Part shown: piece by piece, positions 322 through 48,845 of the stretch
How the letters are laid out: every line of letters begins with the position of its first letter
Numbering within the stretch: the first letter of the stretch is position 1
Assembly: GCA_964412775.1 (NCBI GenBank)
Contig: CAYPPX010000001.1
Span: 65,122 to 129,121, forward strand
Length of the DNA stretch: 64,000 nucleotides
Direction of reading: 5' to 3'
Source of the DNA: an uncultured Pseudomonadales bacterium
Lineage (GTDB): Bacteria > Patescibacteriota > Microgenomatia > UBA1400 > PJMF01
Program-made: the position numbers and the translations under genes
Notes under the pieces: generated by a model
The model's database searches: none
What the model saw: only the letters and a program-made list of their open reading frames with translations
What the model was told of the DNA's origin: nothing

Positions 322-340
322 GGTTAAGTTAAAGAAAATT

Positions 341-1081: not shown

Positions 1082-1515
1082 TTTTTTTATTTTTAGTGAT
1101 TGGGTGTTTTTGGGCTTACTTGTTTTTTAGATCTAAGTCTTTTACACCAGGCTTATTGAATGTTTCAGACGGCGAAGTCATTAGCTGGCAATTAGAGGGG
1201 GAAAGTTTCAAGGTCAAAGTAGTTACTAACCAAGCAAGTATTGAAAAAGGTTTGGGAGGAATTAAGGAGTTTGTTGAAGCAGATGGAATGTTATTTGTTT
1301 TTCCTGGTAAAACTAAACCAATTTTTTGGATGAAAGGAATGCAGTTTGCAATCGATCTTTACTGGCTCAGGGATGGTCAAATTATTGGGGTAGAAAAAAA
1401 TATCTTGCCACCAGAAAGTGAAACTACTGATTTAGTTAAGTACTATTCTCCTGGTGAAGTTGATATGGTTTTAGAAATTCCAGTGAGTAAAAATCTTAAA
1501 TTTTACTCTGAATAA
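1066..1515 (+). CDS. DUF192-family protein
   Basis: N-terminal TM then 'MLFVFPG...PIFWMKGMQFAIDLYWL' resembling DUF192/COG1430; overlaps lgt end by 16 nt. Confidence 0.55.
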   Translation: MAKKLVFLFLVIGCFWAYLFFRSKSFTPGLLNVSDGEVISWQLEGESFKVKVVTNQASIEKGLGGIKEFVEADGMLFVFPGKTKPIFWMKGMQFAIDLYWLRDGQIIGVEKNILPPESETTDLVKYYSPGEVDMVLEIPVSKNLKFYSE

Positions 1516-1526
1516 TACTTCCTTAG

Positions 1527-2546
1527 TTGCTCCAAAAACAGTATTATAGAAGTGTGTCAGATCTTTCTGCCCAACCAGCTAGTAGGATGGCTAGTCGTTT
1601 TGTTGCTAAACAAAACTCGGCTATTGGTTCATTAATTAGAAAAGGGATGACTACTCAAGTAGTTAAAGCAACCAACCTAAATGATCAGCCAGCTACCACT
1701 CAAACTAAAATTCCAAATCAAGTTGTGAGCTCTGTCTCAACTCAAACTACTTCACCCTCAGTTCAGGTGGATGATTTTAAAACCAGTCTTGATGGTTTAT
1801 CAAGTTTGGTAGATCAATCTAAGCCAATTGGTAAGACAGCTGAGGATGTTGATTTAGATTCATTGGTTGGTATTGGTTCAACTCCACAACCTCAGCTTCA
1901 GTCTAGCTCAACCGTCTCAACTCAGCCAACTGATGATGATTTTAAACCCAGTTCAGATCCTTTAACTGATTTTGAAAAAATTATTCAAGACTCAACCCAG
2001 TCCTTGGAAGAAAAGACTCCAGAACAAAGCCAAGAACAAAAATATGGTGATCTAGATATCTTGGATCAGGTAATTAGTGAAGTTGAAGCTGGTGTGGTAG
2101 ACCAAGTTATTCCTCAAGTTGTTGTTCAAACTACTAGTACTTTGAATCCTCAACATCCAGTAAAATCTGCTGGCAGTAAAGAATCAGCTGGTAATATATC
2201 TTTAGACCAAGTAGCGATTGACGCAGCTCGCGGAGCTCAACAAGTCGAAACAGAGCCAACTCCAGAAATTCCTCCTGAAGTAGAGAGTTATTTACAAAAA
2301 GTTGAACAACATACCAACACAGCTCCACCAGAAATCGTGATTGCAGACGGTTCTAATACTCAACCCAACAACCACAACTACCCAGCTCAGCCAGTAGTAG
2401 TTTTACCAATTACTCCAGAGATTGAAAAACAAGGGGCTAATAAAAGTCCCAAGTTTAGTGTTCGTTGGTTAGTAGAATGGAGTAGAAAAATTATGAAAAT
2501 GTTTTCTGGTAAAGTAATTTACCGATTACCAGAGGAGGTCAAATAA
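1527..2546 (+). CDS. low-complexity S/T/Q/P-rich hypothetical protein
   Basis: 339-aa ORF, compositionally biased (Q,S,T,P,V), stop overlaps next ATG (ATGA) suggesting translational coupling; start uncertain. Confidence 0.35.
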   Translation: MLQKQYYRSVSDLSAQPASRMASRFVAKQNSAIGSLIRKGMTTQVVKATNLNDQPATTQTKIPNQVVSSVSTQTTSPSVQVDDFKTSLDGLSSLVDQSKPIGKTAEDVDLDSLVGIGSTPQPQLQSSSTVSTQPTDDDFKPSSDPLTDFEKIIQDSTQSLEEKTPEQSQEQKYGDLDILDQVISEVEAGVVDQVIPQVVVQTTSTLNPQHPVKSAGSKESAGNISLDQVAIDAARGAQQVETEPTPEIPPEVESYLQKVEQHTNTAPPEIVIADGSNTQPNNHNYPAQPVVVLPITPEIEKQGANKSPKFSVRWLVEWSRKIMKMFSGKVIYRLPEEVK

Positions 2547-4882
2547 TGATTTTTGGCTCCGCTGATTTTCTAAACCAAGTTTCTTTGTTTTTCATGAACA
2601 TGTTTCTAGTGATTTTATTGTTGATAGCTTTATTTTTTTTGGGTTACTTATTTTTTCAGTGGTTTAAGCATCGTAAGAGAGAAAGCTACTCTTTAGACTT
2701 TGTCACTTTATTAGTGAGATTACCAAAAGATAATGAAATTAAGATTGATGCAGCAGAACAAATGTTCGCTGGTTTGCACTCACTCAAAAAGCAGGGCTTT
2801 TTCTCATTTTTACAGCCAGAGGAAATGATTAGTTTTGAGTTGGTTGGTCTTAAAGAAGAAATTGCCTTTTATGTTAGTTGTTCCAAAAGCATTCGTGATT
2901 TAGTTGAGAAGCAGATTCATGGCGCCTATCCATTTGCTGATATTAAAGAACAAGATGAAGTTAATATTTTTAATGAAAATGGTCGAGTGGGTTTTGCTTC
3001 TTTAAAGTTAAAAGAGGCCCAGTATTTACCAATAAAAACTTATAAAGATTTGCCTACTGATGGTTTGTCTTTGATTACTTCTGCTTTTTCTAAAATGAGT
3101 GAAGGTGAGGGGGCAATTTTGCAAATTTTAATTCACCCAGATGGAAATAAGTGGCAGCAAAAGGGTCGAAGATACATGCAGGATGAAAAGAAACGAGAAG
3201 CTGATCCACAAAAAGCTACCTACGGCCATGATCCTAAAGAGATGGAAGCGATTAATAACAAAATTGATAAGCCAGGTTTTAGGGTTTCTGTCAGAATAGT
3301 GGTTTCAGCCCAAAATGATGTTGCTGCTGAGTCACACTTGAGCAATATTAAGGGAGCTTTTGCCCAATTTGCTTCTGCTTACAATCAGTTTGAGGAACCA
3401 TGGTTTTTTATTAAACATCTTTTTATGATTGATTTTATTTATCGTTATATGCCTTTGTTTGGTTGGGGTAGTTTTACTTTAAACACTGAAGAGTTAGCCA
3501 CTATTTTTCACTTTCCCAACAAAACAGTTGAGACTCATCATATCAAGTGGTTAACAGCCAAAAATGCGCCAGCACCAAACTTGATTCCAAGCCAAGGTTT
3601 ATTTTTGGGTAAATCTGTTTATCGGGGTGAAGTTCGTAATGTTTATATGAACTTAAAAGATCGTCAGCGTCACATGTATATTATTGGTAAAACTGGTACA
3701 GGCAAGTCAGAATTCTTAAAAGAAATGATTATGCAGGATATTGAGTCCGGACAAGGTGTGTGTGCCATTGATCCACATGGTGAGTTTGTTGAAGATATTT
3801 TACAGATGATTCCACCAGAGAGAGCCGAGGATGTAATTTACTTTAATCCATCAGACTCAACTCGCCCAATGGGTTTAAATATGATGGAAGCTGACACTGA
3901 AGAGCAGCGTCACTTTGTGGTTAGTTCTGTTATTGGTTTGATGTACAAACTTTATGATCCACACCGTACTGGTATTATTGGTCCTCGGTTTGAGCATGCT
4001 ATTCGTAATGCAATGCTAACGATTATGTGCAAAGAAGGATCAACTTTTATTGAGTTGGTACGTGCTTTGACTGATCAAAAATTTGTTGAAGAGTTGTTAC
4101 CCCTAGTCAAAGATCCGGTGGTGAAGCGCTATTGGACAGACCAAATGGCTCAAACAAGTGACTTTCATAAATCAGAAGTGCTTGATTACATTGTTTCCAA
4201 GTTTGGGCGTTTTGTGACGAACAAAACGATGAGAAACATTATTGGTCAGCCTTTTAGTGCTTTTAACTTTAGAAAAGCAATGGACGAAAAGAAAATTATT
4301 CTTTGTAATTTATCTAAAGGTATTCTTGGAGAAGAGGATGCTAAATTTTTGGGTTTGATTTTAGTGCCTAAAGTTTTGACTGCAGCGATGAGTCGTCAAG
4401 ATATCCCAATGGAACAGCGTCAAGATTTCTTTTTGTATGTTGATGAGTTTCAAAACTATGCAACCGAAGATTTTGCCACGATTTTATCTGAGGCTCGTAA
4501 ATATAAACTGAACTTAATTGTGGCTAATCAGTTTATTGGCCAGATTGATGAAGAAGTGAAAAATGCTGTTTTTGGTAACGTCGGTACGATGGTGTCATTT
4601 AGAGTAGGTGTGACTGATGCTAATTTCTTACAACATGAGTTTTCACCAACTTTTACTGAGAATGATTTAGCCAATGTAGAGAAATTTCATGTTTATATTA
4701 AAACCATTGTAAACAATGAACCAGTGCCTGCTTTTAGTATGTCTCTTGAAAAAGATATGGACGAAGTTAAAGCAAGGATGAACCCAAAACTAGCAGAAAT
4801 GATTAAGCAACTGTCCAGACTTAAATATGGTAAAGATAAAGAAGTAGTTGAGGCTGAAATCCAAGTTAGAGCTAGGTTGTAA
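2546..4882 (+). CDS. TraG/TraD/VirD4-family (type IV secretion coupling protein-like) P-loop ATPase
   Basis: N-terminal TM helix, Walker A 'IIGKTGTGKSEF', Walker B-like 'FFLYVDEFQN', 778 aa; architecture of T4SS-DNA-transfer/TraM-recognition ATPases common in CPR. Confidence 0.5.
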   Translation: MIFGSADFLNQVSLFFMNMFLVILLLIALFFLGYLFFQWFKHRKRESYSLDFVTLLVRLPKDNEIKIDAAEQMFAGLHSLKKQGFFSFLQPEEMISFELVGLKEEIAFYVSCSKSIRDLVEKQIHGAYPFADIKEQDEVNIFNENGRVGFASLKLKEAQYLPIKTYKDLPTDGLSLITSAFSKMSEGEGAILQILIHPDGNKWQQKGRRYMQDEKKREADPQKATYGHDPKEMEAINNKIDKPGFRVSVRIVVSAQNDVAAESHLSNIKGAFAQFASAYNQFEEPWFFIKHLFMIDFIYRYMPLFGWGSFTLNTEELATIFHFPNKTVETHHIKWLTAKNAPAPNLIPSQGLFLGKSVYRGEVRNVYMNLKDRQRHMYIIGKTGTGKSEFLKEMIMQDIESGQGVCAIDPHGEFVEDILQMIPPERAEDVIYFNPSDSTRPMGLNMMEADTEEQRHFVVSSVIGLMYKLYDPHRTGIIGPRFEHAIRNAMLTIMCKEGSTFIELVRALTDQKFVEELLPLVKDPVVKRYWTDQMAQTSDFHKSEVLDYIVSKFGRFVTNKTMRNIIGQPFSAFNFRKAMDEKKIILCNLSKGILGEEDAKFLGLILVPKVLTAAMSRQDIPMEQRQDFFLYVDEFQNYATEDFATILSEARKYKLNLIVANQFIGQIDEEVKNAVFGNVGTMVSFRVGVTDANFLQHEFSPTFTENDLANVEKFHVYIKTIVNNEPVPAFSMSLEKDMDEVKARMNPKLAEMIKQLSRLKYGKDKEVVEAEIQVRARL

Positions 4883-4900
4883 GTTGTTTTTAAGTTTAGG

Positions 4901-4942
4901 GTGAGATACTTGCCCATGGGGCAGAGGGGCCGGAGTTGTCTG
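4901..4942. repeat. GC-rich ~40-nt conserved intergenic motif, copy 1
   Basis: gtgagatacttgcccatggggcagaggggccggagttgtctg; about 88% identical to copy at 12413-12454; contains hairpin TGCCC-nnn-GGGCA. Confidence 0.45.
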
Positions 4943-4989
4943 ATTGAGTTATAATACTTTTTCTCCTAATAACAGGAGAAATTTTTTTT

Positions 4990-6201
4990 ATGTTGAATTT
5001 ATTTAGTAAAAAATCCATTTCTGAACAAAACATTACTGTTTATTACCTGATGCAGTTTTGTCATTCTTTGATTTTTTCTATTCCAATTTGGATTGTTTTT
5101 TATCGTCGAGTAATAACCATTGAAGAAATTTCTTTTTTGGTTGGCTTTCAATATTTTATTCAAATTATTGCTGAGTTACCAACGGGGGCTTTTGCTGATA
5201 TTTTAGGTAAAAAAGTCTCGATTATTATTGGTTTTTTGTTTTTTGCTGCCAGCTCCTTGTTATTTCCTTTTGCTCAAGGGTTTACTCACTATTTAGTTTT
5301 GGCTGCTTTTATGGGTTTGGCTGATTCTTTTTTATCTGGATCAGTTGATGCTTTGCTTTATGACTCACTCAAACAAGATGGTCGTGAGACTGAGTTTGCT
5401 GCGGTTTTAGCTAAACAAAGTATTTTTTACCAACTTGGTTTAGTGACCAGTACTGCCTTGGGTGGTCTGATTTATAAGTGGCATATTTTTGCGCCATTTT
5501 TTATTGAAGGGAGCTTTTTTTTACTCGGTGGTTTTTTTGCTTCTCTATTGAGAGAACCAAAAGTTGATTCAGAAATTTTTACCATTAGGAACTATTTAAG
5601 GCAAATTAAACATGGTGCTAAAGAAGCTTTTAAAAACAGTTTTTTAAAAAAGCTATCTTGGTTTTATATTATGGTGGGAGCAATTACTTGGTCAGCAGCC
5701 CTTTATTTTAATAGTTCACTCATGGTTGATTTGGGATTTTCAGATGAAGTTAGAGGTTTTTTACTTGGTTTAATGCGGTTGTTTAACATTGTTTTTTTGA
5801 CTAACTTACTCAAAAACAAAAAACTTTTTACTGAACGCAACTCAATTATTTTTTTTCCAGTCTTAATGATTGTTGCATTATTACCTGGAATTTATCTCCA
5901 AAGTTGGTGGGCGCTACCTTTTGTGGCAGGTTCAATGGCGGCTTCTACAGCTCGTTGGATTGTTTTGGGTAGAATGACTAATGACCACTTTTCTTCGAAA
6001 TACCGTTCAACAGCAATTTCAACTTTAAGCATGGTAATTGGTATTTTTTATACAATGTTTACGATTATTTCTGGTCCAGTGATTAAGTTGGGTACCACTA
6101 GGCTGATGTATACCATTTTGGGTTTAGTGACAGTGGTAGTTGTAGTTCCTTTAGCCAAGTCATTATTACTAGATGTAGATAAAAACTCTAAAGCAAATTA
6201 A
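4990..6201 (+). CDS. MFS-type transporter
   Basis: about 12 predicted TM segments, 403 aa, MFS-like loop between TM2-3 (GAFADILGKK). Confidence 0.55.
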   Translation: MLNLFSKKSISEQNITVYYLMQFCHSLIFSIPIWIVFYRRVITIEEISFLVGFQYFIQIIAELPTGAFADILGKKVSIIIGFLFFAASSLLFPFAQGFTHYLVLAAFMGLADSFLSGSVDALLYDSLKQDGRETEFAAVLAKQSIFYQLGLVTSTALGGLIYKWHIFAPFFIEGSFFLLGGFFASLLREPKVDSEIFTIRNYLRQIKHGAKEAFKNSFLKKLSWFYIMVGAITWSAALYFNSSLMVDLGFSDEVRGFLLGLMRLFNIVFLTNLLKNKKLFTERNSIIFFPVLMIVALLPGIYLQSWWALPFVAGSMAASTARWIVLGRMTNDHFSSKYRSTAISTLSMVIGIFYTMFTIISGPVIKLGTTRLMYTILGLVTVVVVVPLAKSLLLDVDKNSKAN

Positions 6202-6244
6202 ATGTTTTTTATAGTTTTTACGACTAATTAGTATCTTCAATTTT

Positions 6245-6787
6245 ATGGAAAAGACTAAGATAAGACATGGAGTTATTGGCGTTTTAACCCACCAAGATCA
6301 AGTGGTTTTTCTTGGTTTGCCCAGAGAGGATTCACTCCCCAAAGAAGCTGGAGGAAAAGGTAAGCAAGAAAGAGTTAAAGGTGAACAATTCTGGACTTTA
6401 CTAACTACTGGAATGTTGGGTTTCGTTAGTGGTGGTGTAAAAACATCGGCTGACTTAGAACAAATGCCAATTGAGGCTAGAAATGAAATTCTTTTAAAAT
6501 CTTTAACTAGAGAAGCCTTAGAAGAGTTTGATTTGGGTGTTGGCTTGGATAAAGCTGTTGTTAAAAGAGATGGCATAATTGAGCAGTTAAGATATGATGA
6601 ACAAATAACTTTTTTATTATGGGTAGTAAGTAGAGTAGTGATTCAAGAAAACCAACTTTTAAAGCTACGAGAAAAAACTGAAGTAGTTTTAGTCAAGGAA
6701 ACTAAATTAGCTGACTTTTTTGCAACTGAAAAAAATAGAATTAGGCCAGCTGCTCAACAAGCTTTAATTACAGCATATAACTTATGA
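6245..6787 (+). CDS. hypothetical protein
   Basis: 180-aa ORF, 4-nt overlap (ATGA) with downstream IPK gene suggests co-transcription. Confidence 0.35.
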   Translation: MEKTKIRHGVIGVLTHQDQVVFLGLPREDSLPKEAGGKGKQERVKGEQFWTLLTTGMLGFVSGGVKTSADLEQMPIEARNEILLKSLTREALEEFDLGVGLDKAVVKRDGIIEQLRYDEQITFLLWVVSRVVIQENQLLKLREKTEVVLVKETKLADFFATEKNRIRPAAQQALITAYNL

Positions 6788-7599
6788 AAAAATTTAATAA
6801 AAAACAACCAATTACTTTAGTCAAACTGGGTGGTTCTATTATCACCAACAAAAAAGAGTTTATGTCTCTCAAGAAAGAGGCAATCAATGATTTGGTTAAG
6901 CAGATTAAGTTGGTTATTAGTAGTTTTCCCAACGAGCATTTGATAGTTGGTCATGGTCAAGGTAGTTATGCTCACTTGCCAGCTAGTAAATATAGAACCA
7001 TGGAAGGTTTTGTTAACCAAGATAGTACTTATGGAATGGCTGTAGTTCAAGATATGGCTGCTAGATTAAATCGAGAAATAGTTGGGGCTTTTATTGAACA
7101 AAATATTCCAGCAGTATCATTTTTAATGAGTAACTCTTTAATTACCGAAAAACAAAAAGCTAGTCAGGACTTTTTTATTCTTTTAGAAAAATATTTAGAA
7201 AAAGGTCTATTTCCAATTACTTGTGGTGATGTTATTTTGGATGAAGTGATGGGGTGCACCATCTGGTCAACTGAAAAAATTCTAACTTTTTTTACCGAAC
7301 AGTTAACAGCGCATGGTTATCAAGTTGAAAGGCTAATTCATATTACTGAAGTTGGTGGTTTCCTTGATGATCAAAATCAAATTATTAAATACATTAATAA
7401 AACTAATTGGCCAAGTTTAAGTAGGCATTTAACAGCAACCAAAGGCGTTGATGTAACAGGTGGAATGGATTTAAAAGTAACAGAATCACTTGCTTTAGCT
7501 AGTAACTTTGGTCTTAAAACATATATTATGTCTGGTAAAAACAATAACTTATATAATTTTTTTGCTAAAAAAGACTGGGTGGGTACAGAAATTAGTTAG
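6784..7599 (+). CDS. isopentenyl phosphate kinase (amino-acid kinase superfamily)
   Basis: LVKLGGSIIT N-terminal motif, GHGQGSYAH, IPAVSF, CGDVILDE, DVTGGMD, GTEI C-terminus; these align with archaeal IPK motifs. Confidence 0.75.
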   Translation: MKKFNKKQPITLVKLGGSIITNKKEFMSLKKEAINDLVKQIKLVISSFPNEHLIVGHGQGSYAHLPASKYRTMEGFVNQDSTYGMAVVQDMAARLNREIVGAFIEQNIPAVSFLMSNSLITEKQKASQDFFILLEKYLEKGLFPITCGDVILDEVMGCTIWSTEKILTFFTEQLTAHGYQVERLIHITEVGGFLDDQNQIIKYINKTNWPSLSRHLTATKGVDVTGGMDLKVTESLALASNFGLKTYIMSGKNNNLYNFFAKKDWVGTEIS

Positions 7600-7960
7600 A
7601 GTTTTCTGGAGTGGGCGTTTGGCTAATTTCGTAGCTTTCCACTACTTGTTTACAATAAATGTATTGACCATATTCGATAGCTTTTTCATGAACTGGTTGT
7701 GAAGTATCTTCTTGGATAGTATTTTTGAAGGCATCTTGGGCAAAATTACCTAGCTCTTTGGCTCTAGTTGAAAAAGTTTCTAGTTGTTCTCCTGAGCTAC
7801 CTTGAAAGTTGTTAAAACTAGGAACTTTATTGGTAGCTTGATCGATTGTTTCTTTGGGGATTGCTGGCAAGTTGGTTGGTAGTAGATTATTGTAGCTAGA
7901 GTAAACATATCCACCGGCTAATCCTAGCAATAACAGAGCTATAATCAATTTTGTTCTCAT
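7592..7960 (-). CDS. small secreted hypothetical protein
   Basis: N-terminal signal peptide (MRTKLIIALLLLGLAGG), 122 aa. Confidence 0.4.
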   Translation of the reverse strand: MRTKLIIALLLLGLAGGYVYSSYNNLLPTNLPAIPKETIDQATNKVPSFNNFQGSSGEQLETFSTRAKELGNFAQDAFKNTIQEDTSQPVHEKAIEYGQYIYCKQVVESYEISQTPTPENSN

Positions 7961-9255: not shown

Positions 9256-10464
9256 TTACTCGTATCTCAAAGCTTCAATCGGAGAGAGGCTAGCTGCTCT
9301 TTTGGCTGGAGCAACTCCAAAAATTACTCCAACAGCAGCCGAAACACTAAAGGCTAACATAATGGCACCTAAAGTAATTTTGGCTGGGAAAAAGGCTTGA
9401 ATAGCCAGTGAACCAAGATAAGCAATTGCTAAACCAATCAAACCACCCATAACCGAGAGTAGAGCAGATTCAATTAAAAACTGGACCAAAATTTGTTTTG
9501 GGGTAGCGCCTAGAGCTTTTCTTAGACCAATTTCTCTAGTTCTTTCGGTAACAGAAACTAACATGATATTCATAATCCCAATACCACCAACCACTAGGGA
9601 AATAGCAGCAATGCCCCCAAGACCCACAGTTAGCATGCCCAAAATACCATTAATTGTATCTAGAATTTCAGCTTGATCAACCACACTAAACTCATCTTCT
9701 TCTAGTCTTTTACCCAAAGTATTTTCGATAGCTTTAATTGATTCCTTCATCCTATCTTTGTCATTAATCTTGACCATAATTTCCACAATTTGTTCTGTAT
9801 CATAAATTCTAAAACTAGTTTCCAGTGGTATATATACATAAGTATCAAAACTTGGACCACCTCCACCCCCACCTTGTTTTTCAGCTGTGCCTACGACTTT
9901 AAAGGTTTGGGTACCAAGTTTGACCTTTTTACCAATAGGATCAACTTGACCAAATAACTCATCAGCAATTTGCCAACCCAAAACAGCCACTCTTTCTGCT
10001 CCTTGGTCTTCAGCTTTATTGAAAAACCGTCCTTTTTCTATCCCAATGATGAATTCTTCATATTGGTAGTTTGTACCAATTACTGAGACGGTTTTTTCTT
10101 CCTCTCTGAAAGAAATTTTGTCTGATTGAGTATTCATTGGTATAGCAAATTTGACAAATTCTCTCAGTCTATTAATTTCGTTGACATCTTCTAGTTTTAG
10201 TTTATTGTTAATAAAAGCATTTCTTTGTGATTCGGCGTTAAAGCCACCACCCTCAGCAAAGGGATTTCCTGGAACGATAAAAACATTGTTGGAACCAAGT
10301 GCTTCAAACTGGTCAGTAATGTAGGCTTGGAGACCAGTCCCGATGGAAGTTAGCAAGACTACAGAAGACACCCCAATAATGACACCCAACATGGTTAAGA
10401 ATGACCTACCTTTGTTGACCATGATGGCTTTAATGGCCACCAGGAAAGTATTTTTTAGTTTCAT
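9256..10464 (-). CDS. ABC transporter permease, MacB/FtsX-type
   Basis: N-terminal TM, large extracytoplasmic domain, C-terminal 3-TM FtsX-like domain; G-rich loop (GGGGGG). Confidence 0.75.
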   Translation of the reverse strand: MKLKNTFLVAIKAIMVNKGRSFLTMLGVIIGVSSVVLLTSIGTGLQAYITDQFEALGSNNVFIVPGNPFAEGGGFNAESQRNAFINNKLKLEDVNEINRLREFVKFAIPMNTQSDKISFREEEKTVSVIGTNYQYEEFIIGIEKGRFFNKAEDQGAERVAVLGWQIADELFGQVDPIGKKVKLGTQTFKVVGTAEKQGGGGGGPSFDTYVYIPLETSFRIYDTEQIVEIMVKINDKDRMKESIKAIENTLGKRLEEDEFSVVDQAEILDTINGILGMLTVGLGGIAAISLVVGGIGIMNIMLVSVTERTREIGLRKALGATPKQILVQFLIESALLSVMGGLIGLAIAYLGSLAIQAFFPAKITLGAIMLAFSVSAAVGVIFGVAPAKRAASLSPIEALRYE

Positions 10465-11159
10465 TTCTTTATTTTTCCATCATGAATTTCAATACTAGAA
10501 TGAGCAATTTTAGCCACATCATGTTCGTGGGTGACCATAATGATAGTTTTACCTTCTTTGTTGAGTTCTTTGAGAATTTTTTCAACTTCTTGTCCAGATT
10601 TAGAGTCTAAGTTGCCAGTTGGTTCATCAGCAAAAATAATTGAGGGGCTATTAATCAGTGCCCTAGCGATGGCAACCCTTTGTTGTTGACCACCAGATAA
10701 TTGTGCCGGACTGTTGTCCAATCTATTACCCAGTCCCACTCTTTCTAACATTACTTTGGCCATTTCCAGCCGAGTTTTTTCATCAATCCCAGCGTAAACT
10801 AGAGGTAAAGCAACATTTTCGAGAGCAGATGTTTTAGCTAGAAGGTTGAAGTTTTGAAAAATAAAGCCGATCTCTTTGTTTCTTAAATGGGCTCGTTCAA
10901 CTTCATCATAAGTAGTGGTATCTTTACCATTGATGAAAATTTTACCAGAGCTTGGGGCAGCTAAAATACTAGCGACCTGTAGAAAGGTTGATTTTCCAGA
11001 ACCAGATGGGCCCATGACTGATAGAAAGTCACCAGCTCGGACCTTTAAAGAAATACCATCTAAAGCTCTAATTTTTTGAGTACCAAGCGAATATTCTTTG
11101 ACAACATCAATCAATTCTAAAACTACTGGTTTATTATTTTTACTTGCTTTTTGAGACAT
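10461..11159 (-). CDS. ABC transporter ATP-binding protein (MacB/LolD-like)
   Basis: Walker A GPSGSGKST, signature LSGGQQQRVAIARAL, Walker B IIFADEPTGNLD; 4-nt overlap with the downstream permease gene. Confidence 0.9.
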   Translation of the reverse strand: MSQKASKNNKPVVLELIDVVKEYSLGTQKIRALDGISLKVRAGDFLSVMGPSGSGKSTFLQVASILAAPSSGKIFINGKDTTTYDEVERAHLRNKEIGFIFQNFNLLAKTSALENVALPLVYAGIDEKTRLEMAKVMLERVGLGNRLDNSPAQLSGGQQQRVAIARALINSPSIIFADEPTGNLDSKSGQEVEKILKELNKEGKTIIMVTHEHDVAKIAHSSIEIHDGKIKK

Positions 11160-11161
11160 CT

Positions 11162-12208
11162 TTATTCTGGAATAACGATTTCATCACTTGTAGATAAACC
11201 ACTAACTACCTCAATTTTTTCGTCTGTTTCTAATCCAACCTCAATTTCTCTTTCTTCGGTGGTTTTGTTGTCAATTTTGATATCAACATAGGTTTTACCA
11301 TCTCTTTCTTTGATTGCGACCAAAGGAACTGTCATCACATTCTGTTTGGTTTCTAGCTCTATTTTGACATCACCATTCATGCCTAAGCGGTATTTAGTTA
11401 AATCGTTTGATGAGATAGGAAACTCAACGACAAAGGCTGTACCACTAGCTGATGGAACACTTTGAAAAGAAATATAGTTGACAGCACTAGTGAAATTTTC
11501 TTCTGGGTAAGCATCTAGTTCGATTGTGGCTGATTGATTTTGAGTAACCAACGAAATATCTGATTCGTCAACTAAAGCTTTGAAAGTAAGTGTGGCTGGG
11601 TTAACAATCTCAAAACTATCTGTAGCTAAGAGTTGAACTCCAGTCACCGGAGTTGGACTTTTAATCAAGATACCATCAAATGGTGAAGTCATCACTCCAT
11701 TTGAGATAGAAATGGCAGCTAGTTCCACATCAAGAACTGAGTTAGTAAGGTCAAATTGTTCTTTGTCGATGGTTCTTTTTAAAGATTCATCAACGGTTGT
11801 GCCATCACCAATATCGTCCTGTCTTTGGTCCCAATCAAGTCTTTCCTTAGAGTAAGCATTGAGGTACTTTTCTTGAGTTTTTAGGGCAGTCCTTTGATCA
11901 ACTGTGGCGATGGTTTGCCATTTTTTGACAGTATCACCTTCTTTGGCTCCCAGGTAAACCACTTTACCACCAGCCACAAAGCGCAGGCTAACTTTTTCTT
12001 TAGCATCAATAACACCAGAAACATCAAGAGTTTTAGTAATGGTTTCAATTGTGGGGTGAGCGAAAACAAGAACTGGTTGGTTAGCTTTACTTTTAATGAT
12101 GTTGTTTAAAATTAATCCCAGAATCACAACGACAGTAATAATTAACCACTTTCTTTTTTGCCAGATGCTTTTTAGATTGCTAAATAAACCTTTAATTTTA
12201 TTTGCCAT
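11162..12208 (-). CDS. HlyD/MacA-family periplasmic adaptor (efflux membrane-fusion protein)
   Basis: N-terminal TM anchor, coiled-coil region, beta-barrel-like C-terminal region, 348 aa; operon with MacB-like ATPase/permease. Confidence 0.6.
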   Translation of the reverse strand: MANKIKGLFSNLKSIWQKRKWLIITVVVILGLILNNIIKSKANQPVLVFAHPTIETITKTLDVSGVIDAKEKVSLRFVAGGKVVYLGAKEGDTVKKWQTIATVDQRTALKTQEKYLNAYSKERLDWDQRQDDIGDGTTVDESLKRTIDKEQFDLTNSVLDVELAAISISNGVMTSPFDGILIKSPTPVTGVQLLATDSFEIVNPATLTFKALVDESDISLVTQNQSATIELDAYPEENFTSAVNYISFQSVPSASGTAFVVEFPISSNDLTKYRLGMNGDVKIELETKQNVMTVPLVAIKERDGKTYVDIKIDNKTTEEREIEVGLETDEKIEVVSGLSTSDEIVIPE

Positions 12209-12250
12209 AAGTCTTTCTCAGATTATAGTTGCTCAATTATATAACTTTAG

Positions 12251-12323
12251 TGCGTGCGCTAGGACTTGAACCTAGAACCACCAAGGTATAAGCTTGGCGC
12301 TCTGCCAATTGAGCTACGCACGC
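12251..12323 (-). tRNA. tRNA-Ile (anticodon UAU)
   Basis: Hand-folded 73-nt cloverleaf on minus strand: acceptor GCGTGCG/CGCACGC, D-stem GCTC/GAGC, anticodon stem CCAAG/CTTGG with loop CTTATAC, T-arm CTAGG-TTCAAGT-CCTAG; no encoded CCA. Confidence 0.8.
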
Positions 12324-12456: not shown

Positions 12457-13689
12457 TTACAAGAAGAGTAACAGTAATGCACCAATACCAAGGGCTCCAA
12501 GACCAACTTGTAAGTATTGTAGCCAATTTTCTGGACCACTCTTTGGTAGCTCTGAAGGAAGAGTTGGTTCAGTTGAAGTATATCTGTTAGTGATATTAAC
12601 AGTAGCCGTACTTGAAGACGATGAGCTAGATGAGGAACTACTGCTACTACTGCCTTCAGTTGGAACGGCTGTTGGGGCATTACAACAGGCTGCTTTGCCA
12701 GGGTTAGCGATACAAGCATCCTCATAGGCAGGCATTGAACAATAATTGTCACCGTCATTGGCAGTGACACAGATTAAGCCATCATTACAATCATTATCAT
12801 CGTCACAAGGGGTGTAGCCACATTCTTCTGGTAAAGGAGTTGGAGTAATAGTTGGGGTAGGTTCATTACAACAGGCCTCAACACCAGGGTTAGCGATACA
12901 AGCATCCTCATATTCAGGTAGAGAACAGTATTTATCACCATCATCAGCAGTAACACAGATCAAACCCTCATCACAGCTGGCATCAGTAGTACAAGGAGTG
13001 TAACCACATTCACTAATCATCGGAGTTGGACTTGGGGTAACAGTAATGGTTGGAGTAATAGTTGGGGTTACACCAGGAGGTAGTGTTGGAGTTGGACTTG
13101 GTACTCTGGTTGGTGTTGGAGTAGCAGTTGGTGTAATAGTCGTAGTTGGAGGCTCGGTTGGTTCAGGTGGTTCGGTGGGTCTTGGTGGTCTAGTAGGTCC
13201 ACCACCAGGACAACAGCCATCTTCATCTGGCCCATAAATATCAGAACAACACACATAGCCTTCAACACAACAAGTTGTTCCTTGGCCTTGATAGTTAGTA
13301 CAGTAAGCTCTGCCTTGATTTTCACATTGGGTTTCTAATTCTGGTTCGCATTTTGTTCCATTACATAAATCTCCACCTAAACAGTGACACCACTCTGGGT
13401 GTCCACCACAAGCATTAGGGTCATTAATGTTACACTCAAAGTTACTATATTGACCGGTATCTGCCTGTTGACGTAAATCTTGGTTGAGTTTGGTCATGTA
13501 AAGACCAGCAATACCTCCAAGAACTAGGAGTAAAAGTGATAAAAAAGCAAAAACAAGTTTTGTTTTTTTACTATTTGTATTTTTTAGTTTTTTTTCTTTG
13601 AAACTATTACCATCACCATTAACTATAGTCTTATCTAAAGAGGGGATATCACCAATTGGCTGGTTGATTTTAGTTAACAGGTCGGACAT
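12457..13689 (-). CDS. cysteine-rich cell-surface protein, paralog 1 (signal anchor, Cys modules, PT linker, poly-Ser, C-terminal LPKSG sorting-like signal)
   Basis: ORF 12457-13701 starts at a TTG; the first ATG is at 13689. N-terminal TM followed by conserved [17 protein letters not shown], two ECGYTPC...CVTADDGDKYCSLPEYEDACIANPG..CC modules, 16 consecutive Ser, and C-terminus ...[30 protein letters not shown]. Confidence 0.6.
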   Translation of the reverse strand: MSDLLTKINQPIGDIPSLDKTIVNGDGNSFKEKKLKNTNSKKTKLVFAFLSLLLLVLGGIAGLYMTKLNQDLRQQADTGQYSNFECNINDPNACGGHPEWCHCLGGDLCNGTKCEPELETQCENQGRAYCTNYQGQGTTCCVEGYVCCSDIYGPDEDGCCPGGGPTRPPRPTEPPEPTEPPTTTITPTATPTPTRVPSPTPTLPPGVTPTITPTITVTPSPTPMISECGYTPCTTDASCDEGLICVTADDGDKYCSLPEYEDACIANPGVEACCNEPTPTITPTPLPEECGYTPCDDDNDCNDGLICVTANDGDNYCSMPAYEDACIANPGKAACCNAPTAVPTEGSSSSSSSSSSSSSSTATVNITNRYTSTEPTLPSELPKSGPENWLQYLQVGLGALGIGALLLLFL

Positions 13690-13747
13690 GTATTTATACA
13701 ATACATAGAATAGCTTGTTTTTTATAGATTCGTCAATCTGCTGATTA

Positions 13748-15082
13748 TTATAAAAATAAGATTAATAATGCCCCAATACCTAATGCTCCAAGACCAATTT
13801 GTAAGTAGTTTAGCCAGTCGCTTGGTCCAGATTGAGGTAATTTTTCTGGATAGGTTGGTTGCTCACCTTTTGTAGTGGTTTTAGTGGTTGTTTTAGTTGG
13901 AGTTGCTGTTGTTGTTTTAGTAGCCACTTTGGTTGGAGAAGAGGTCGTATTGTTGGTAACAGTTCTGCCTCCACCTGACACAACAGTATTATTTTCAATG
14001 TTTATAACGACTGATGAAGATGAACTACTGCTAGAACTGCTGCTAGATGAGCTACCTCCACTTGGTGGGTTGGTTGGAGCAATACAACAAACAGCTTTAC
14101 CAGGGTTAGCGATACAAGCTTCTTCATATTCTGGCATCGAACAATAGTTATCACCGTTATTAGCAGTGACACAAATTAGGTCATCGCTACAATCGTTATC
14201 ATCGTCACAAGGAGTGTAACCACATTCTTCAGGTGCTGGAGTAGCGGTTGGAGTTGGAGTGGTAGTGGCTGTTGGAGCGATACAACAAGATTCGGTGCTT
14301 GGGTTATCTATACAAGCATCTTCATATTCTGGTATCGAACAATAGTTATCACCGTCATTAGCAGTGACACAAATTAGGTCATCGCTACAATCGTTATCAT
14401 CGTCACAAGGAGTGTAACCACACTCACTTGGCTCTGGGGTAGCAGTTGGAGCGTTACAACATTTTTCTACTCCTGGTTCGATAGCACATTCTTCAGCATA
14501 TTCTGGCATCGAACAATAGTTATCACCGTTATCAGCAGTGACACAGATTAAATCTTCACCACAGTCATTATCATCATCACATGGGGTGTAGCCACACTCA
14601 CTTGGCTCTGGGGTAGCAGTTGGAGCGTTACAACATTTTTCTGTCCCTGGTTCAGCGATACAAGCTTCTTCATATTCAGGTAAAGAACAATAGCTATTTC
14701 CATTTTCAGCGGTAATACAACTGAGGCCCTCAGCACAGTCGTTGGCCGTTTCACAAGGGCCAAAGCCACAATTTGCTTTGAGAGTTGGACCTGGAACAGT
14801 AAAGGAAATATGGCAACTATCTTGATTTATAAAGGCTGCAGGTTGTGAGTCTGGAGCATTTGGAGCTTTAATTGAATCATCAATAAATTGTTTTTGTGAA
14901 ATTAATACGCCAGCTAATCCAAGAATAAAAAAAGATAATAATCCAAAGGTAGTTAGGATAATATTTTTAATATTCTTCTTTGGTTTTTCTGGTTTGTTAA
15001 ATGAAGGCACGGAATCATTCAGCTTTACTTCAAAAGCTGTTGGATCTTGTTTGACTGGTAGGTTCTTTTTTAAATCAAGCAT
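13748..15082 (-). CDS. cysteine-rich cell-surface protein, paralog 2 (four tandem 8-Cys modules, C-terminal LPQSG signal)
   Basis: N-terminal TM; 4 repeats of SECGYTPCDDDNDC..DLICVTA.NGDNYCS.PEYEEACI..PG...CC.APTAT; poly-Ser (16); TTK-rich linker; C-terminus [32 protein letters not shown]; 9 nt downstream of paralog 3 (operon). Confidence 0.65.
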   Translation of the reverse strand: MLDLKKNLPVKQDPTAFEVKLNDSVPSFNKPEKPKKNIKNIILTTFGLLSFFILGLAGVLISQKQFIDDSIKAPNAPDSQPAAFINQDSCHISFTVPGPTLKANCGFGPCETANDCAEGLSCITAENGNSYCSLPEYEEACIAEPGTEKCCNAPTATPEPSECGYTPCDDDNDCGEDLICVTADNGDNYCSMPEYAEECAIEPGVEKCCNAPTATPEPSECGYTPCDDDNDCSDDLICVTANDGDNYCSIPEYEDACIDNPSTESCCIAPTATTTPTPTATPAPEECGYTPCDDDNDCSDDLICVTANNGDNYCSMPEYEEACIANPGKAVCCIAPTNPPSGGSSSSSSSSSSSSSSVVINIENNTVVSGGGRTVTNNTTSSPTKVATKTTTATPTKTTTKTTTKGEQPTYPEKLPQSGPSDWLNYLQIGLGALGIGALLILFL

Positions 15083-15091
15083 TTTTACTTT

Positions 15092-16255
15092 TTAGTCTTC
15101 ACAAGCTGTTGGTGTTAGGCTCTCCCAATCACAAACAGTATCTCCTGCTTCATCGATGCTACAAACAGAACATTGAGCCATGTAATCACCATACATACTA
15201 ATATTGTAATTAATTCCGTTTTCACCCTCTTCATTAATAAATTCTAGAGGTTCTAAGTGGTTATGACTGCCACATGGTTCGTAGATTCTAAAGGCGTAGA
15301 AGTATCCATCTGGTAAGGAACTTTGATTACTACTACAAACAAATCTAACAGTACTTTGTCCAGCAATAAGTTGATCATCGTCATTAGCTGACATTAGACT
15401 GCTTTGACCACTAGTCACGTTGTACATAGCAATATCTCTACATTGTGGTCCAATCATTGTTGTAGGGGTTGGAGTAGGCTCATTACAACAGGCCTCAACA
15501 CCAGGGTTAGCGATACAAGCATCCTCATATTCAGGTAGAGAACAGTATTTGTCACCATCATTAGCAGTGACACAGATTAAACCATCGTTACAACTGGCAT
15601 CAGTAGTACAAGGAGTGTAACCACACTCATTAATTACTGGAGTTGGACTTGGTGTAGGAGTGCTAGTTGGTGTAGGGGTAGCAGTAGGGGTAATGGTTGT
15701 AGTTGGTGGGTCAGTTGGATCTGGAGGATCATCTGGAGGGTCGTTTGGAGGGCAGTCAGTACAGACAACTCCGGCATCTTCACACAAAGCATCACAGCTA
15801 TCTGCAACACCAATTACCCAGTAGCCCTGGTCATTTCCTGGACCACATTTGCAACGGATCATACCTCCAGTACAACCTTCTACAACTGTAGTATTGGGAT
15901 TGTCACACCAATCACCACCCAAAGTATCTTCTGTACATAAACCGTCATCGTCATAACCACAAACAATAATGCCGTCACCATCAGGATCATCACAGTTTTC
16001 TAGCACACAACGGCCATTCACTAGATGGTAGTTTGGTTCGCAACTATATTGACCGGTATCTGCTTGTTGACGTAAGTCTTGGTTGAGTTTGGTCATAAAC
16101 AAGCCAGTGGTAACACCAATTACTAAAAAGAGTAAGGAGGCGATACCGATTAATAACTTATTTTTTGAAGATTGAGCGACAGCAAATTGAACCGTTTTTT
16201 TGCTTGGTTCTCTAGCAGAACTAAAACTAGTATTTTGGGGATCACTAGATTCCAT
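15092..16255 (-). CDS. cysteine-rich secreted/surface protein, paralog 3 (no C-terminal sorting signal)
   Basis: N-terminal TM + [18 protein letters not shown] (nucleotide sequence nearly identical to paralog 1), Cys-rich N domain, PT linker, one ECGYTPC module, distinct Cys-containing C-terminal domain ending ...TPTACED. Confidence 0.6.
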   Translation of the reverse strand: MESSDPQNTSFSSAREPSKKTVQFAVAQSSKNKLLIGIASLLFLVIGVTTGLFMTKLNQDLRQQADTGQYSCEPNYHLVNGRCVLENCDDPDGDGIIVCGYDDDGLCTEDTLGGDWCDNPNTTVVEGCTGGMIRCKCGPGNDQGYWVIGVADSCDALCEDAGVVCTDCPPNDPPDDPPDPTDPPTTTITPTATPTPTSTPTPSPTPVINECGYTPCTTDASCNDGLICVTANDGDKYCSLPEYEDACIANPGVEACCNEPTPTPTTMIGPQCRDIAMYNVTSGQSSLMSANDDDQLIAGQSTVRFVCSSNQSSLPDGYFYAFRIYEPCGSHNHLEPLEFINEEGENGINYNISMYGDYMAQCSVCSIDEAGDTVCDWESLTPTACED

Positions 16256-16312
16256 AAATAAACTGTTATTAAGAATATATCTTTTTTCAAGTACTCGTCA
16301 ATGAATAAAAAT

Positions 16313-16340
16313 AAAAAGGGACTAATTTTTAGTCCCTTTT
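16313..16340 (-). terminator. intrinsic terminator downstream of paralog 4
   Basis: Perfect 10-bp stem aaaagggact/agtccctttt with 7-nt loop, followed on the minus strand by T-rich tract. Confidence 0.55.
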
Positions 16341-16365
16341 ATTAATCTTAGTTATTATTGGTTTT

Positions 16366-17214
16366 TTATAAGAAGAGTAGTAGCAGTGCTCCAGCTCCTA
16401 AAGCACCCAAACCAATCTGTAAGTATTTAAGCCAGTCTTCTGGTCCAGTTTCTGGTAATTGTTCTGGTAAATCTGGTTGAGTAGTGTAACTAGTAGTACC
16501 AGTGCTGGTGCTAGTATTGATGTTTACAGTAGCACTACTATTACTTTCTGAGTAACTACTTGATGAACTGCCATCATTGTTGTTTGATTGGGTTGGTTCT
16601 GCTGTTGGTTCGGTTGTGGGCTCACTTCCACCAGTAGTTGGTTCGGTTGTCGGTTCACCGGTTGGTTCGGTTGTGGGCTCACCAGTTGGTTCAGTTGTAG
16701 GTTCACCAGTTGGTTCAGTTGTAGGTTCTGCTGTTGGTTCGGTTGTCGGTTCACCGGTTGGTTCGGTTGTGGGAGCTACAGTTGGAGTTGGATCAGATGA
16801 TCCAGCATCACAAGTACACTTAGCTTTACCATCGTTTCCAATTTGGTTTGGTAGTGATCTACATTCTCCATCACCACCACATGAATCACCTGGATCTTTG
16901 CCTTGACATTGAGAAGCAGAAGCATCAGAACAGTCGCCTCCAGTAGTGTATGCTCCTGTATCAGCCTGTTGACGTAAATCTTGGTTAATCTTCATCAAGT
17001 AAAGACTAATTCCACCACCTATTACTAATAGTAGTAAGAGAATCCCAGCAATTAGATAGCGTTTATTACTTTTTCTAGTGGGTTTTTTTGAAAATCTTTT
17101 TAGAGTCGGTTCTTTGTTTTCTGCTTTGTCGCTATTTAATTGAGTTGGATCAGCTGGTAAGCTAGGTCCAGACACATCGTTGCTATAACTAGGATTTTGG
17201 ATGGTATTAATCAT
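16366..17214 (-). CDS. cysteine-rich cell-surface protein, paralog 4 (EPTT/GEPT tandem repeats, C-terminal LPETG signal)
   Basis: N-terminal TM + [17 protein letters not shown], 12-Cys domain, about 9 tandem TEPTGEPT repeats (12/24-nt DNA periodicity), S-rich tract, C-terminus [32 protein letters not shown]. Confidence 0.6.
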
Positions 17215-17290: not shown

Positions 17291-18139
17291 TTGAATAGTA
17301 ATTTATATTATGGTATTTATTTTTATATAGAACTAAGACTTGTGACAATCAACAATTTAAGATCTCTTGAAAAATACAAAAACTGGTTTGATTTTTTGTG
17401 GTCAATGGCTGAAAAAGAAACTAAAGCAAGATATAAAAATGCTTTGCTTGGTTTTTCGTGGATGGTTATCAATCCAGTTTTGCAAATGTTAATTATTGGG
17501 ATTATTTTTCAGTTTTTTGTTTCTTTTCAAACCATAGACAACTATTATTTATTTTTGTTAGTTGGTTTATTAGTATGGAATTTTTTTTCATCAAGCTTGA
17601 GCCAAGTTTCTCCTGTTTTTATTCAGCAACGTTTTTTATTACAAAAAGCAAGTTTTTCTAGAGAGATTTTGCCACTTTCGGTTATTTTGTCGAATATGTT
17701 TCATATTATTGTTTCTCTTGTTTTACTTTTAGTTTATATTTTTATTTTTAATGGTTTTGTTTTTTCATTTGTTAAATTAGTGTTACTTCTTTTTTCAGTT
17801 ATTTGGTTGCTTATTTTTACTAGTGGATTGGGTTTGTTGACTTCATCTTTAAATGTCAAATACAGAGATGTAAGTTTTATGGTTCAAGCATCGTTACCAC
17901 TTGGTTTCTACTTAACGCCGATTATTTATGATGAAAGCATGTTGCCTGGCAGTATTAGGTGGTTATTATTCATTAACCCTTTGAGTTCAATTATTGCAAA
18001 TTTAAAATCTGTATTTTTATCAACTACTGTTTTATCTATTAATTACCAAATACTTAGTATTTTTGTGACAATTTTAATTTTATTTTTAGGCATTTTTGTT
18101 TTTTTTAGAAACAGTAAAAACTTTAGTGACTATGTTTAA
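17291..18139 (+). CDS. ABC-2 type polysaccharide/teichoic-acid export permease (Wzm/TagG-like)
   Basis: 'LWSMAEKETKARYKNALLGFSWMVINP' matches the Wzm/KpsM N-terminal signature, 6 TM; true start may be GTG at 17342 or ATG at 17405. Confidence 0.7.
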   Translation: MNSNLYYGIYFYIELRLVTINNLRSLEKYKNWFDFLWSMAEKETKARYKNALLGFSWMVINPVLQMLIIGIIFQFFVSFQTIDNYYLFLLVGLLVWNFFSSSLSQVSPVFIQQRFLLQKASFSREILPLSVILSNMFHIIVSLVLLLVYIFIFNGFVFSFVKLVLLLFSVIWLLIFTSGLGLLTSSLNVKYRDVSFMVQASLPLGFYLTPIIYDESMLPGSIRWLLFINPLSSIIANLKSVFLSTTVLSINYQILSIFVTILILFLGIFVFFRNSKNFSDYV

Positions 18140-18142
18140 TTT

Positions 18143-18871
18143 ATGAAAAAAAATGCTGTTATTTCTCTAAAGAACATTACTAAAGAATATACTTTAAGAG
18201 GGCATAGACCAACTTTAGTGGAAAGATTGCTTGGGAAATCTAAGTTGGAAAAAGTTGAAGCATTACATAATTTGAGTATTGATATTTTTCCTGGGCAAAA
18301 AGTAGGTATTGTTGGCTCAAATGGTTCAGGTAAAACTACTTTTTTAAAAATTATTTCTAATATTTCTCAACCCACATCTGGTGAAATGAAAGTTGTTGGT
18401 CGAGTTGTGTCAGTCATAGATTTGGAGGCTGGATTTCATCCAGATCTTTCAGGTAGAGAGAATATTATGATTAATGGCATGATTTTAGGTATGACTAAGA
18501 AAGAAATATTATCAAAAATGAATGAAATTCTTTCTTTTGCTGATATTGGTAGATTTATTGATGAACCAATATTTACTTATTCAAAGGGCATGAAACTTAG
18601 GTTGGGCTTTGCTATTGCAATTAGTAGTGATCCGGATATTTTTTTGCTTGATGAGATGATTGCTGTAGGTGATAAAGAATTTAAAGCCAAAACGGCAAAA
18701 AAAGTTGCTTCTTTTTTGAAGCAAGGTAAAGTGGTGGTTATTGCTAGTCATTTAATTGATTTTATTGGTCTTTCATGCAAAAGAATTGTTTGGTTGGAAA
18801 AAGGTAAAATTTTGGCAGATGGTGGTAAAGAAGTTGTAAAAAAGTACAAAAAATACAAAAGTTCTTTATAA
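18143..18871 (+). CDS. ABC-2 exporter ATP-binding protein (Wzt/TagH-like)
   Basis: Walker A GSNGSGKTT, Walker B FLLDEMIAVGD, 242 aa without C-terminal carbohydrate-binding domain. Confidence 0.85.
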   Translation: MKKNAVISLKNITKEYTLRGHRPTLVERLLGKSKLEKVEALHNLSIDIFPGQKVGIVGSNGSGKTTFLKIISNISQPTSGEMKVVGRVVSVIDLEAGFHPDLSGRENIMINGMILGMTKKEILSKMNEILSFADIGRFIDEPIFTYSKGMKLRLGFAIAISSDPDIFLLDEMIAVGDKEFKAKTAKKVASFLKQGKVVVIASHLIDFIGLSCKRIVWLEKGKILADGGKEVVKKYKKYKSSL

Positions 18872-45626: not shown

Positions 45627-45700
45627 GGGCCCTTAGCTCAGTTGGCTAGAGCGCTACATTTGCAATGTAGAGGCCAAGGGTTCGAGCCCCTTAGGGTCCA
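45627..45700 (+). tRNA. tRNA-Ala (anticodon UGC)
   Basis: Hand-folded: acceptor GGGCCCT/AGGGTCC (one G-U), D-arm GCTC-AGTTGGCTA-GAGC, anticodon arm CTACA-TTTGCAA-TGTAG, T-arm AAGGG-TTCGAGC-CCCTT. Confidence 0.85.

Positions 45701-45931: not shown

Positions 45932-48845
<2,914 letters not shown>

Follow-up and report, generated by a model that had tools for sequence, protein, structure and literature searches.

What does a repeated, cysteine-rich module of 47 residues do in the products of a small gene cluster from a bacterium of the Candidate Phyla Radiation (CPR), and does it belong to any family of disulfide-rich domains already described? Surface display and host attachment in CPR bacteria (Patescibacteria) are largely unknown, and most of their surface proteome is unannotated. 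The module lies in a 64,000-nt stretch of DNA, called the window below, from an uncultured Pseudomonadales bacterium (contig CAYPPX010000001.1, positions 65,122-129,121 of the forward strand; assembly GCA_964412775.1) whose GTDB lineage is Patescibacteriota; Microgenomatia; UBA1400; PJMF01. It occurs in the first three of four adjacent minus-strand open reading frames (ORFs), here named p1, p2, p3 and p4, at 12.4-17.3 kb of the window, and a preliminary description had likened it to Kazal/follistatin domains. What is new at this locus is an unclassified mini-domain; what is known is its type of carrier, a modular LPxTG-like anchored surface protein. The reading favored here, with a probability of about one half, is that the module is a bead stapled by disulfides, present in variable copy number, which serves as an anchor-proximal stalk or spacer in surface proteins of the sortase type.

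The eight-cysteine module and its carriers

The whole window, translated in all six frames, was searched for the module with the regular expression C-x4-C-x5-C-x5-C-x9-C-x8-C-x8-CC, which gave exactly seven matches, every one within p1, p2 or p3. The genes and the modules, each of 47 residues with eight cysteines, are as follows.

12457-13701, minus strand: p1, ORF of 414 aa
13748-15082, minus strand: p2, ORF of 444 aa
15092-16255, minus strand: p3, ORF of 387 aa
16366-17214, minus strand: p4, ORF of 282 aa
14630-14770, minus strand: p2 module 1 (aa 105-151), the most divergent copy (CGFGPC...)
14456-14596, minus strand: p2 module 2 (aa 163-209), seen by regular expression, alignment and structure prediction with AlphaFold2 (AF2)
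14282-14422, minus strand: p2 module 3 (aa 221-267), the copy modeled alone (predicted local distance difference test, pLDDT, 87.9)
14084-14224, minus strand: p2 module 4 (aa 287-333), anchor-proximal, closest to p1 module 2 (87% aa) and p2 module 3 (90% nt)
12868-13008, minus strand: p1 module 1 (aa 232-278), 93% identical in aa and 94% in nt to the p3 module
12682-12822, minus strand: p1 module 2 (aa 294-340), the anchor-proximal copy
15485-15625, minus strand: p3 module (aa 211-257), seen by regular expression

The resulting count of four copies in p2, two in p1 and one in p3 agrees with that of the preliminary description, whose printed consensus is also correct (the third cysteine gap is x5) and whose interval, 14080-14785, covers the p2 array but not the modules of p1 and p3, which lie outside it. 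The same seven DNA copies were found independently by a repeat search (repeat family D2), and Tandem Repeats Finder (TRF) detects a 174-nt period in p2.

Over whole modules, the copies are 57-93% identical to one another in protein and 63-94% in DNA. The DNA repeats had been called near-identical, which is true locally, as 45 of 46 nt agree between 14180-14225 and 14378-14423, but not of the modules as a whole; the best 61-nt match has 53 identities, so that the near-identity stops there. Nei-Gojobori estimates between module pairs give saturated synonymous sites (dS > 1) for most pairs and a dN/dS of 0.06-0.30 for most, with a full range of 0.06-0.56. The pairs with low dS are p2 modules 3 and 4 (dS 0.17, dN/dS 0.56) and p1 module 1 with the p3 module (dS 0.19), and only these two are recent copies or gene-converted; to speak of near-identical DNA is right for these two pairs alone. 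When 33 modules from 20 proteins are aligned (the alignment on which the single-module model was also built), all eight cysteines, G4 and Y29 are invariant and P43 is nearly so; the module core is conserved in the family alignment, which contains no hypervariable loop. Because dN/dS is low and these positions are invariant, the module is not a chance occurrence, and its copies are old protein domains under purifying selection.

A K-rich segment followed by a membrane helix opens all four proteins, and p1, p3 and p4 (not p2) have one conserved motif in common just after this helix. In p2, an N-terminal cytoplasmic tail and the membrane helix (aa 38-67) precede the four modules, which are set on Pro/Thr linkers and followed by a poly-Ser/Thr-rich tract and then by LPQSG with a hydrophobic tail. 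In p1, the helix and motif are followed by a 14-Cys head, a Pro/Thr linker, two modules, a poly-Ser tract and LPKSG with a hydrophobic tail. A Cys-rich head, a Pro/Thr linker and a single module follow the helix and motif in p3, which ends in a Cys-containing domain of about 115 aa and has no C-terminal anchor. The fourth protein, p4, has no eight-cysteine module and is built of helix and motif, a 6-Cys head, an (E-P-T-T/G)n repeat (Pfam PT repeat, E = 3.3e-7) and LPETG with a hydrophobic tail.

Relatives were sought in two ways. A word-indexed search of 5.8 billion proteins returned 19, of which the named ones are from Patescibacteria and Peregrinibacteria, and an exhaustive search of 1.84 billion representatives with a hidden Markov model (HMM) returned 173 matches at E <= 0.001, so that the family is rare. 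All named sources of the module are Patescibacteria, Peregrinibacteria or Pacebacteria. The near-identical NCBI cluster mates of p3, p4 and a neighboring MacB-type permease are named Candidatus Pacebacteria/Paceibacterota, which places the source in the CPR and fits its earlier portrayal as an episymbiont-like bacterium. The module is present in 154 of 160 retrieved proteins, as one copy in 117, two in 27, three in eight and four in two. In the 124 module proteins that have such a tail of hydrophobic residues, a median of 56.5 aa (10th-90th percentile 41-128) separates the end of the last module from the C-terminus, and the segment between this module and the tail is rich in T, P and S. A set of 102 members has almost no Pfam domain in common, with only sporadic VWA, PKD, dockerin, polysaccharide deacetylase and beta-helix domains, and such diverse or absent heads fit a generic stalk element. 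Literature searches found no description of this eight-cysteine module.

The number of modules also differs between close relatives, as the preliminary description had thought possible. The same four-gene cluster lies beside the same HlyD/ABC/MacB genes at two other loci, L001, from a Patescibacteria metagenome-assembled genome (MAG), and L002, and positions 4126-7914 and 268-3160 of these, respectively, were compared with 12457-17214 of the window. A scan for related loci with a single protein as query gave only a pair of near-identical, syntenic loci. At both loci the p2 ortholog (252 aa) and the p1 ortholog have one module each and the p3-type gene has none, compared with four, two and one in the window, and a further relative, P0002, has three copies. 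In addition, the p3-type gene of L001 and L002 fuses a p1-type 14-Cys head to the p3 C-terminal domain, with no eight-cysteine module, and the gene at the p1 position carries a p3-like head. Close relatives thus differ both in how many modules they have and in which heads are joined to which tails; the cluster is mosaic, and its paralogs appear to have exchanged heads, modules and tails.

Predicted fold and families considered

The AF2 model of a single module is a confident one and consists of a beta-hairpin (strands 19-22 and 28-31) and two short helices (33-41 and 45-49). In the model of full-length p2, four beads with this same secondary structure (about 105-152, 163-211, 221-270 and 287-335) have a pLDDT of 80-94, the linkers 153-161, 212-217 and 272-286 and the Ser/Thr tract 336-412 fall below 50, and terminal helices span 38-67 and 420-443. 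The predicted template modeling score (pTM) of the whole is 0.23; p2 is therefore a string of beads with no fixed packing between modules. Sequence and predicted fold both support the view, already taken in the preliminary description, of a repeated disulfide-rich unit at the extracellular surface. All eight cysteines are presumably oxidized, and C2-C5 may pair among themselves, with C1 and C6-C8 tying on the helical half. Two unrelated-looking repeat proteins (P0135 and P0154) contain the four-cysteine N-terminal half-unit alone, in tandem, which suggests that the N-terminal hairpin half is a generic, self-contained motif.

Pfam was searched up to E = 10 and NCBIfam up to E = 1 for the window proteins, and Pfam up to E = 0.001 for 102 family members, with HMMER filters that discard most matches above about E = 0.1, so that very weak library matches may be missed. 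Only one Pfam family exceeds its gathering score for p2, namely DX (PF01666), a nematode Cys-rich domain (26.4 bits against 25, E = 1e-5). This score sums four partial alignments, each confined to positions 47-72 of the 76-position profile; one module alone reaches 10.9 bits (E = 0.68), and 3 of the 102 members match, P0002 having a precomputed PF01666 annotation. A full-length match being absent, DX was rejected, and what the module has in common with it is a C-x5-C-x5-C acidic hairpin motif rather than the domain. The WAP four-disulfide core, whose pattern (C-xn-C-xn-C-x5-C-x5-CC-x3-5-C-x3-4-C) also has eight cysteines but with a central CC, was rejected likewise, the CC of the module being terminal; there is no WAP match in the window proteins, a WAP-like regular expression finds nothing in the family, and one protein of the 102 has a weak WAP match (E = 2e-4) somewhere along its length. 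Neither pacifastin, LDL-A, EGF, granulin nor the Myxococcus Cys-repeat is among the Pfam or NCBIfam matches of the window proteins, and NCBIfam gives nothing relevant for the paralogs. Kazal_1 and Kazal_2 match none of the four paralogs nor the single module at E <= 10, and none of the 102 members at E <= 0.001. The 47-residue unit is an unclassified mini-domain, covered by Pfam and NCBIfam only through the marginal, partial DX match.

Proposed roles: stalk bead, inhibitor or binding unit

The case for a stalk begins with the C-termini. In p1, p2 and p4, the LPx[ST]G-type motif is followed by about 25 hydrophobic residues up to the stop codon, and in p2 this segment coincides with the predicted helix 420-443:

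13748-13840, minus strand: p2 sorting-signal-like tail, LPQSG plus a hydrophobic stretch, with no basic tail

Across the family, 82 of 160 proteins have [LIVM]Px[TSAG]G within their last 45 residues and 126 have a hydrophobic tail. In some distant members, P0091 and P0146 among them, a basic tail accompanies a canonical LPXTG, and P0005 is annotated in NCBI as an LPXTG anchor protein. Sortase has been reported to be common in CPR genomes (PMC6851277; PMC4736985), and the tails would be cleaved by such an enzyme. The 47-residue unit is an autonomous extracellular mini-domain, presumably with four disulfides, in which a beta-hairpin and two short helices follow an N-terminal loop. Its carrier proteins run from an N-in membrane helix through a variable Cys-rich head (or none), Pro/Thr linkers, one to four modules and a Ser/Thr-rich tract to LPx[ST]G and a hydrophobic tail. 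On the stalk reading, a rigid row of beads would hold the variable distal parts at a distance from the wall, and unequal recombination between the DNA repeats would alter copy number and so set stalk length. The role of the module would then be structural rather than ligand-binding.

This architecture resembles that of Gram-positive LPXTG sortase substrates, with their export or membrane segment, variable distal part, small repeats on Pro/Thr linkers, Ser/Thr tract and LPx[TS]G followed by hydrophobic residues, and, as in Gram-positive LPXTG proteins with stalk repeats, repeat number differs between relatives. However, the repeat here is a 47-aa four-disulfide mini-domain, not an Ig-like, B-repeat or helical one, and the organism, a CPR bacterium, is itself a difference.

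Several observations weigh against a sortase-anchored spacer. The tails of p1, p2 and p4 end in ...LLLLFL or ...LLILFL with no K or R, unlike those of Gram-positive LPXTG proteins, and the HMMs stay just below cut-off (TIGR01167, cut-off 15.9 bits: p4 14.8 and p2 11.6; Pfam Gram_pos_anchor: E = 0.82). A scan of the 64-kb window for a TLxTC-type motif revealed no sortase. "Spacer" is moreover a default reading, drawn from position and architecture, with no structural homolog assigning a function. In addition, p2 has no recognizable head domain, and its modules are the only folded extracellular part in the AF2 model; because there is no other folded ectodomain, they may do more than spacing. Finally, the modules of the window are strongly acidic, with a net charge of -8 to -13, and this acidity could serve the binding of cations or ligands.

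The earlier suggestion of a divergent Kazal/follistatin homolog with two extra disulfides starts from a local resemblance, as the module, like these domains, is small and disulfide-rich and has a strand-turn-strand with a D/N-G turn, an aromatic residue before the cysteine (Y-C) and then a helix; follistatin chains also appear in the Foldseek list against PDB. The common element is nevertheless generic: a helix preceded by a beta-hairpin that has a D/N-G turn. The module has eight cysteines and not six, in an order and spacing incompatible with the Kazal signature, which reads C-x4-{C}-x2-C-x-{A}-x4-Y-x3-C-x(2,3)-C. A PROSITE-like pattern for this signature, which matches the controls OMTKY3 and SPINK1, is found in none of the four paralogs and none of 172 family proteins, and the core motif CG[ST][DN]GxTY in no protein of the family. 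The hhalign comparison of the module profile with a Kazal alignment gave a probability of 0.2% over five columns, which are the "DG..Y" turn, and follistatin is only twelfth in the Foldseek list (17 columns, E = 3.1, probability 0.07, TM 0.30), with no classical Kazal inhibitor in the top 50. With the Pfam results given above, Kazal homology was rejected and is extremely improbable. Judged by the refuting condition that the preliminary description itself named, its Kazal part is refuted in both sequence and predicted fold; its wider suggestion of an inhibitor fold leans on knottin-like matches that are not significant. These would make the module a surface-tethered, non-Kazal, knottin-like protease inhibitor, for example of the carboxypeptidase-inhibitor type, shielding the epibiont against proteases from its host or the environment. 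Over its N-terminal ~27 residues, which comprise C-x5-C-x5-C and the beta-hairpin, the module can be superposed on hairpins of knottins of the inhibitor cystine knot (ICK) type and of Dickkopf/colipase with a root-mean-square deviation (rmsd) of 0.8-2.5 A, the structures being Magi4, J-atracotoxin, psalmotoxin and the second cysteine-rich domain (CRD2) of Dkk1. The best PDB matches of Foldseek are restricted to this part and include the Dkk1 CRD (3s2k_C; E = 1.5, 28 columns, rmsd 0.8 A) and spider ICK toxins (26-27 residues, rmsd 1.4-2.5 A); these top matches have E values of 1.5-2.9, TMq of 0.38-0.48 and 26-30 columns. A profile search of PDB sequences has WCI (6jic, a 36-aa peptide that we take to be a knottin carboxypeptidase inhibitor; E = 0.68) and Dickkopf-4 (DKK4; E = 1) as its best matches, and hhalign aligns potato carboxypeptidase inhibitor over 22 columns with a probability of 8.4%. 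Pacifastin-like small disulfide-rich domains have also been claimed in CPR MAGs (PMC13388995). However, none of these matches is significant: Foldseek against PDB gives nothing at E <= 0.001, with all E >= 1.5 and probabilities <= 0.54, and the lowest E value of any of these comparisons is 0.68. The matches span the N-terminal half, which occurs alone in other proteins as a generic hairpin, and the module departs from knottins in its eight cysteines with a terminal CC and in its helical C-terminal half. The module also has no variable loop of the reactive-site kind, and a position next to the anchor is odd for an inhibitor; this explanation is quite unlikely.

A ligand-binding or adhesin unit, directed at a host envelope component or at divalent cations and gaining avidity for episymbiotic attachment from its tandem copies, deserves more consideration, and we regard it as possible but somewhat unlikely. 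The lack of another folded extracellular domain in p2 and the acidity of the modules argue for it, and a binding surface could be made up of the "PEY" and "TA.[DN]G" motifs, which are conserved and exposed. The N-terminal half resembles the receptor-binding disulfide hairpins of Dickkopf CRDs and EGF-like domains, non-significantly in every case (a BFVD structure search gave EGF-like giant-virus proteins at E ~ 1). For large Cys-rich extracellular proteins of Peribacteria, which have ~1,655 aa and Cys repeats of the Myxococcus type, a role in attachment has been suggested (PMC4736985). The present proteins are like these in being CPR, extracellular and Cys-rich, with strain-level variation, but have 280-450 aa and a distinct eight-cysteine module of which that paper gives no description. 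Against binding stands the position of the module, which in most family members is the domain nearest the anchor and not a distal one, together with the low dN/dS and the absence of a hypervariable surface, unlike many host-interaction surfaces. Furthermore, the acidity is not kept across the family (mean net charge -7, maximum +2), and distant members have "NGGNS" or "NGTL" as their C2-C3 loop. A bolder proposal, that of a hitherto undescribed, CPR-restricted four-disulfide mini-domain with a genuine bacterial cystine-knot or Dickkopf-like N-terminal half, acting directly as a tethered inhibitor or host-envelope binder and having its avidity tuned by recombination through copy number, is unlikely.

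Whichever of these holds, a module with clear boundaries, a confidently predicted fold, about 170 representatives and a near-anchor position offers a handle for the annotation of CPR surface proteins. It is also a concrete object for structural and binding studies, compact enough to be expressed alone. Changes in module number and the shuffling of heads and tails are the kind of variation expected at a surface that interacts with a host or is exposed to phage. Should the module act only as a spacer, this would be useful for annotation and not surprising; a bacterial cystine-knot inhibitor or host-binding element would be of greater interest.

Genomic setting and further observations

The conserved motif behind the membrane helix of p1, p3 and p4 is the product of an 83-nt DNA repeat, D4 (72-83% identity), which covers the helix end and the motif and was located by repeat search in these minus-strand genes:

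13444-13526: D4 in p1
16043-16125: D4 in p3
16945-17027: D4 in p4

This motif may be a CPR-typical export or processing signal, and among 166 family proteins, 27 have a related motif of the "QQDIRSRA" type behind their N-terminal helix. The corresponding segment of p2 differs from it and reads "APNAP.S.PAA...C.[LIV].F.V", that is, "APNAPDSQPAAF..SCHISFTV"; 15 family members of the p2 type have "AP[NT]AP.S.P.A ... C.[LIV].F.V" after the helix (p2 aa 75-97, ~14813-14860). It includes a conserved odd cysteine, C90, as p2 has 33 cysteines in all (4 x 8 + 1). Two short strands are predicted around C90 by AF2 at low confidence (residues 65-104, pLDDT below 50), and this residue could be modified or take part in a disulfide between molecules.

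The 14-Cys head of p1 (aa 88-165, ~13150-13440) contains CC-x5-CC-x10-CC ("TTCCVEGYVCCSDIYGPDEDGCCPGG"), has no Pfam match and recurs in P0010 and in the p3-type gene of L001 and L002. The conserved C-terminal domain of p3 (15092-15480; "GPQCRDIAMYN...CDWESLTPTACED") matches no family and is also found in P0009, P0067 and L001/L002. In p4, a periodic tandem repeat of 12/24/48 nt detected by TRF at 16636-16785 encodes the (E-P-T-T/G)n tract. This tract is likely to be a linker of variable length, and it recalls the hypervariable PTD-repeat surface gene of a Gracilibacterium (PMC6851277).

The p3 protein is identical to P0006 in NCBI. The exact sequences of p1 and p2 are absent from a collection of 15 billion proteins in which p3, p4 and the neighboring MacB-type permease, all from one 362,951-nt NCBI contig, are present, and the closest match to the p2 module region in the word-indexed search is at most 64% identical. 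The multi-module genes p1 and p2 may have been left uncalled or treated differently in the source annotation.

On one side, the cluster is flanked by genes for a HlyD/YknX-like adaptor, an ABC ATPase and a MacB/FtsX-type permease (9256-12208, minus strand), and on the other by an ABC-2 type exporter pair (17291-18871, plus strand). The former set adjoins the module genes in the window, L001/L002, L003/L004 and L005 and is not adjacent to them in the more distant L007 and L008. It was therefore rejected as a conserved operon partner, and the linkage is a matter of lineage synteny and not a functional requirement. L002 (CAYSQA010000005.1) bears the label "uncultured Pseudomonadales"; because its protein sequences are nearly identical to, and syntenic with, those of the Patescibacteria MAG L001, this is probably a binning or taxonomy error.

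Directly downstream of p1 lies a tRNA-Ile gene with anticodon TAT (12250-12323, minus strand). A tRNA-Ile with a UAU anticodon is uncommon in bacteria, where AUA is usually decoded by a lysidine-modified CAU tRNA. Farther along, 45627-49070 holds genes for tRNA-Ala, 23S rRNA (45926-48844) and 5S rRNA (48954-49070), with protein-coding ORFs immediately upstream. Because of these ORFs, and because no 16S rRNA gene was found anywhere in the window, the 16S gene is apparently unlinked from the 23S-5S pair. Finally, 2546-4882 (plus strand) encodes a 778-aa protein with HerA/DUF87 and TrwB/VirD4-type coupling-protein domains, and the same gene is found near the cluster in L003/L004.

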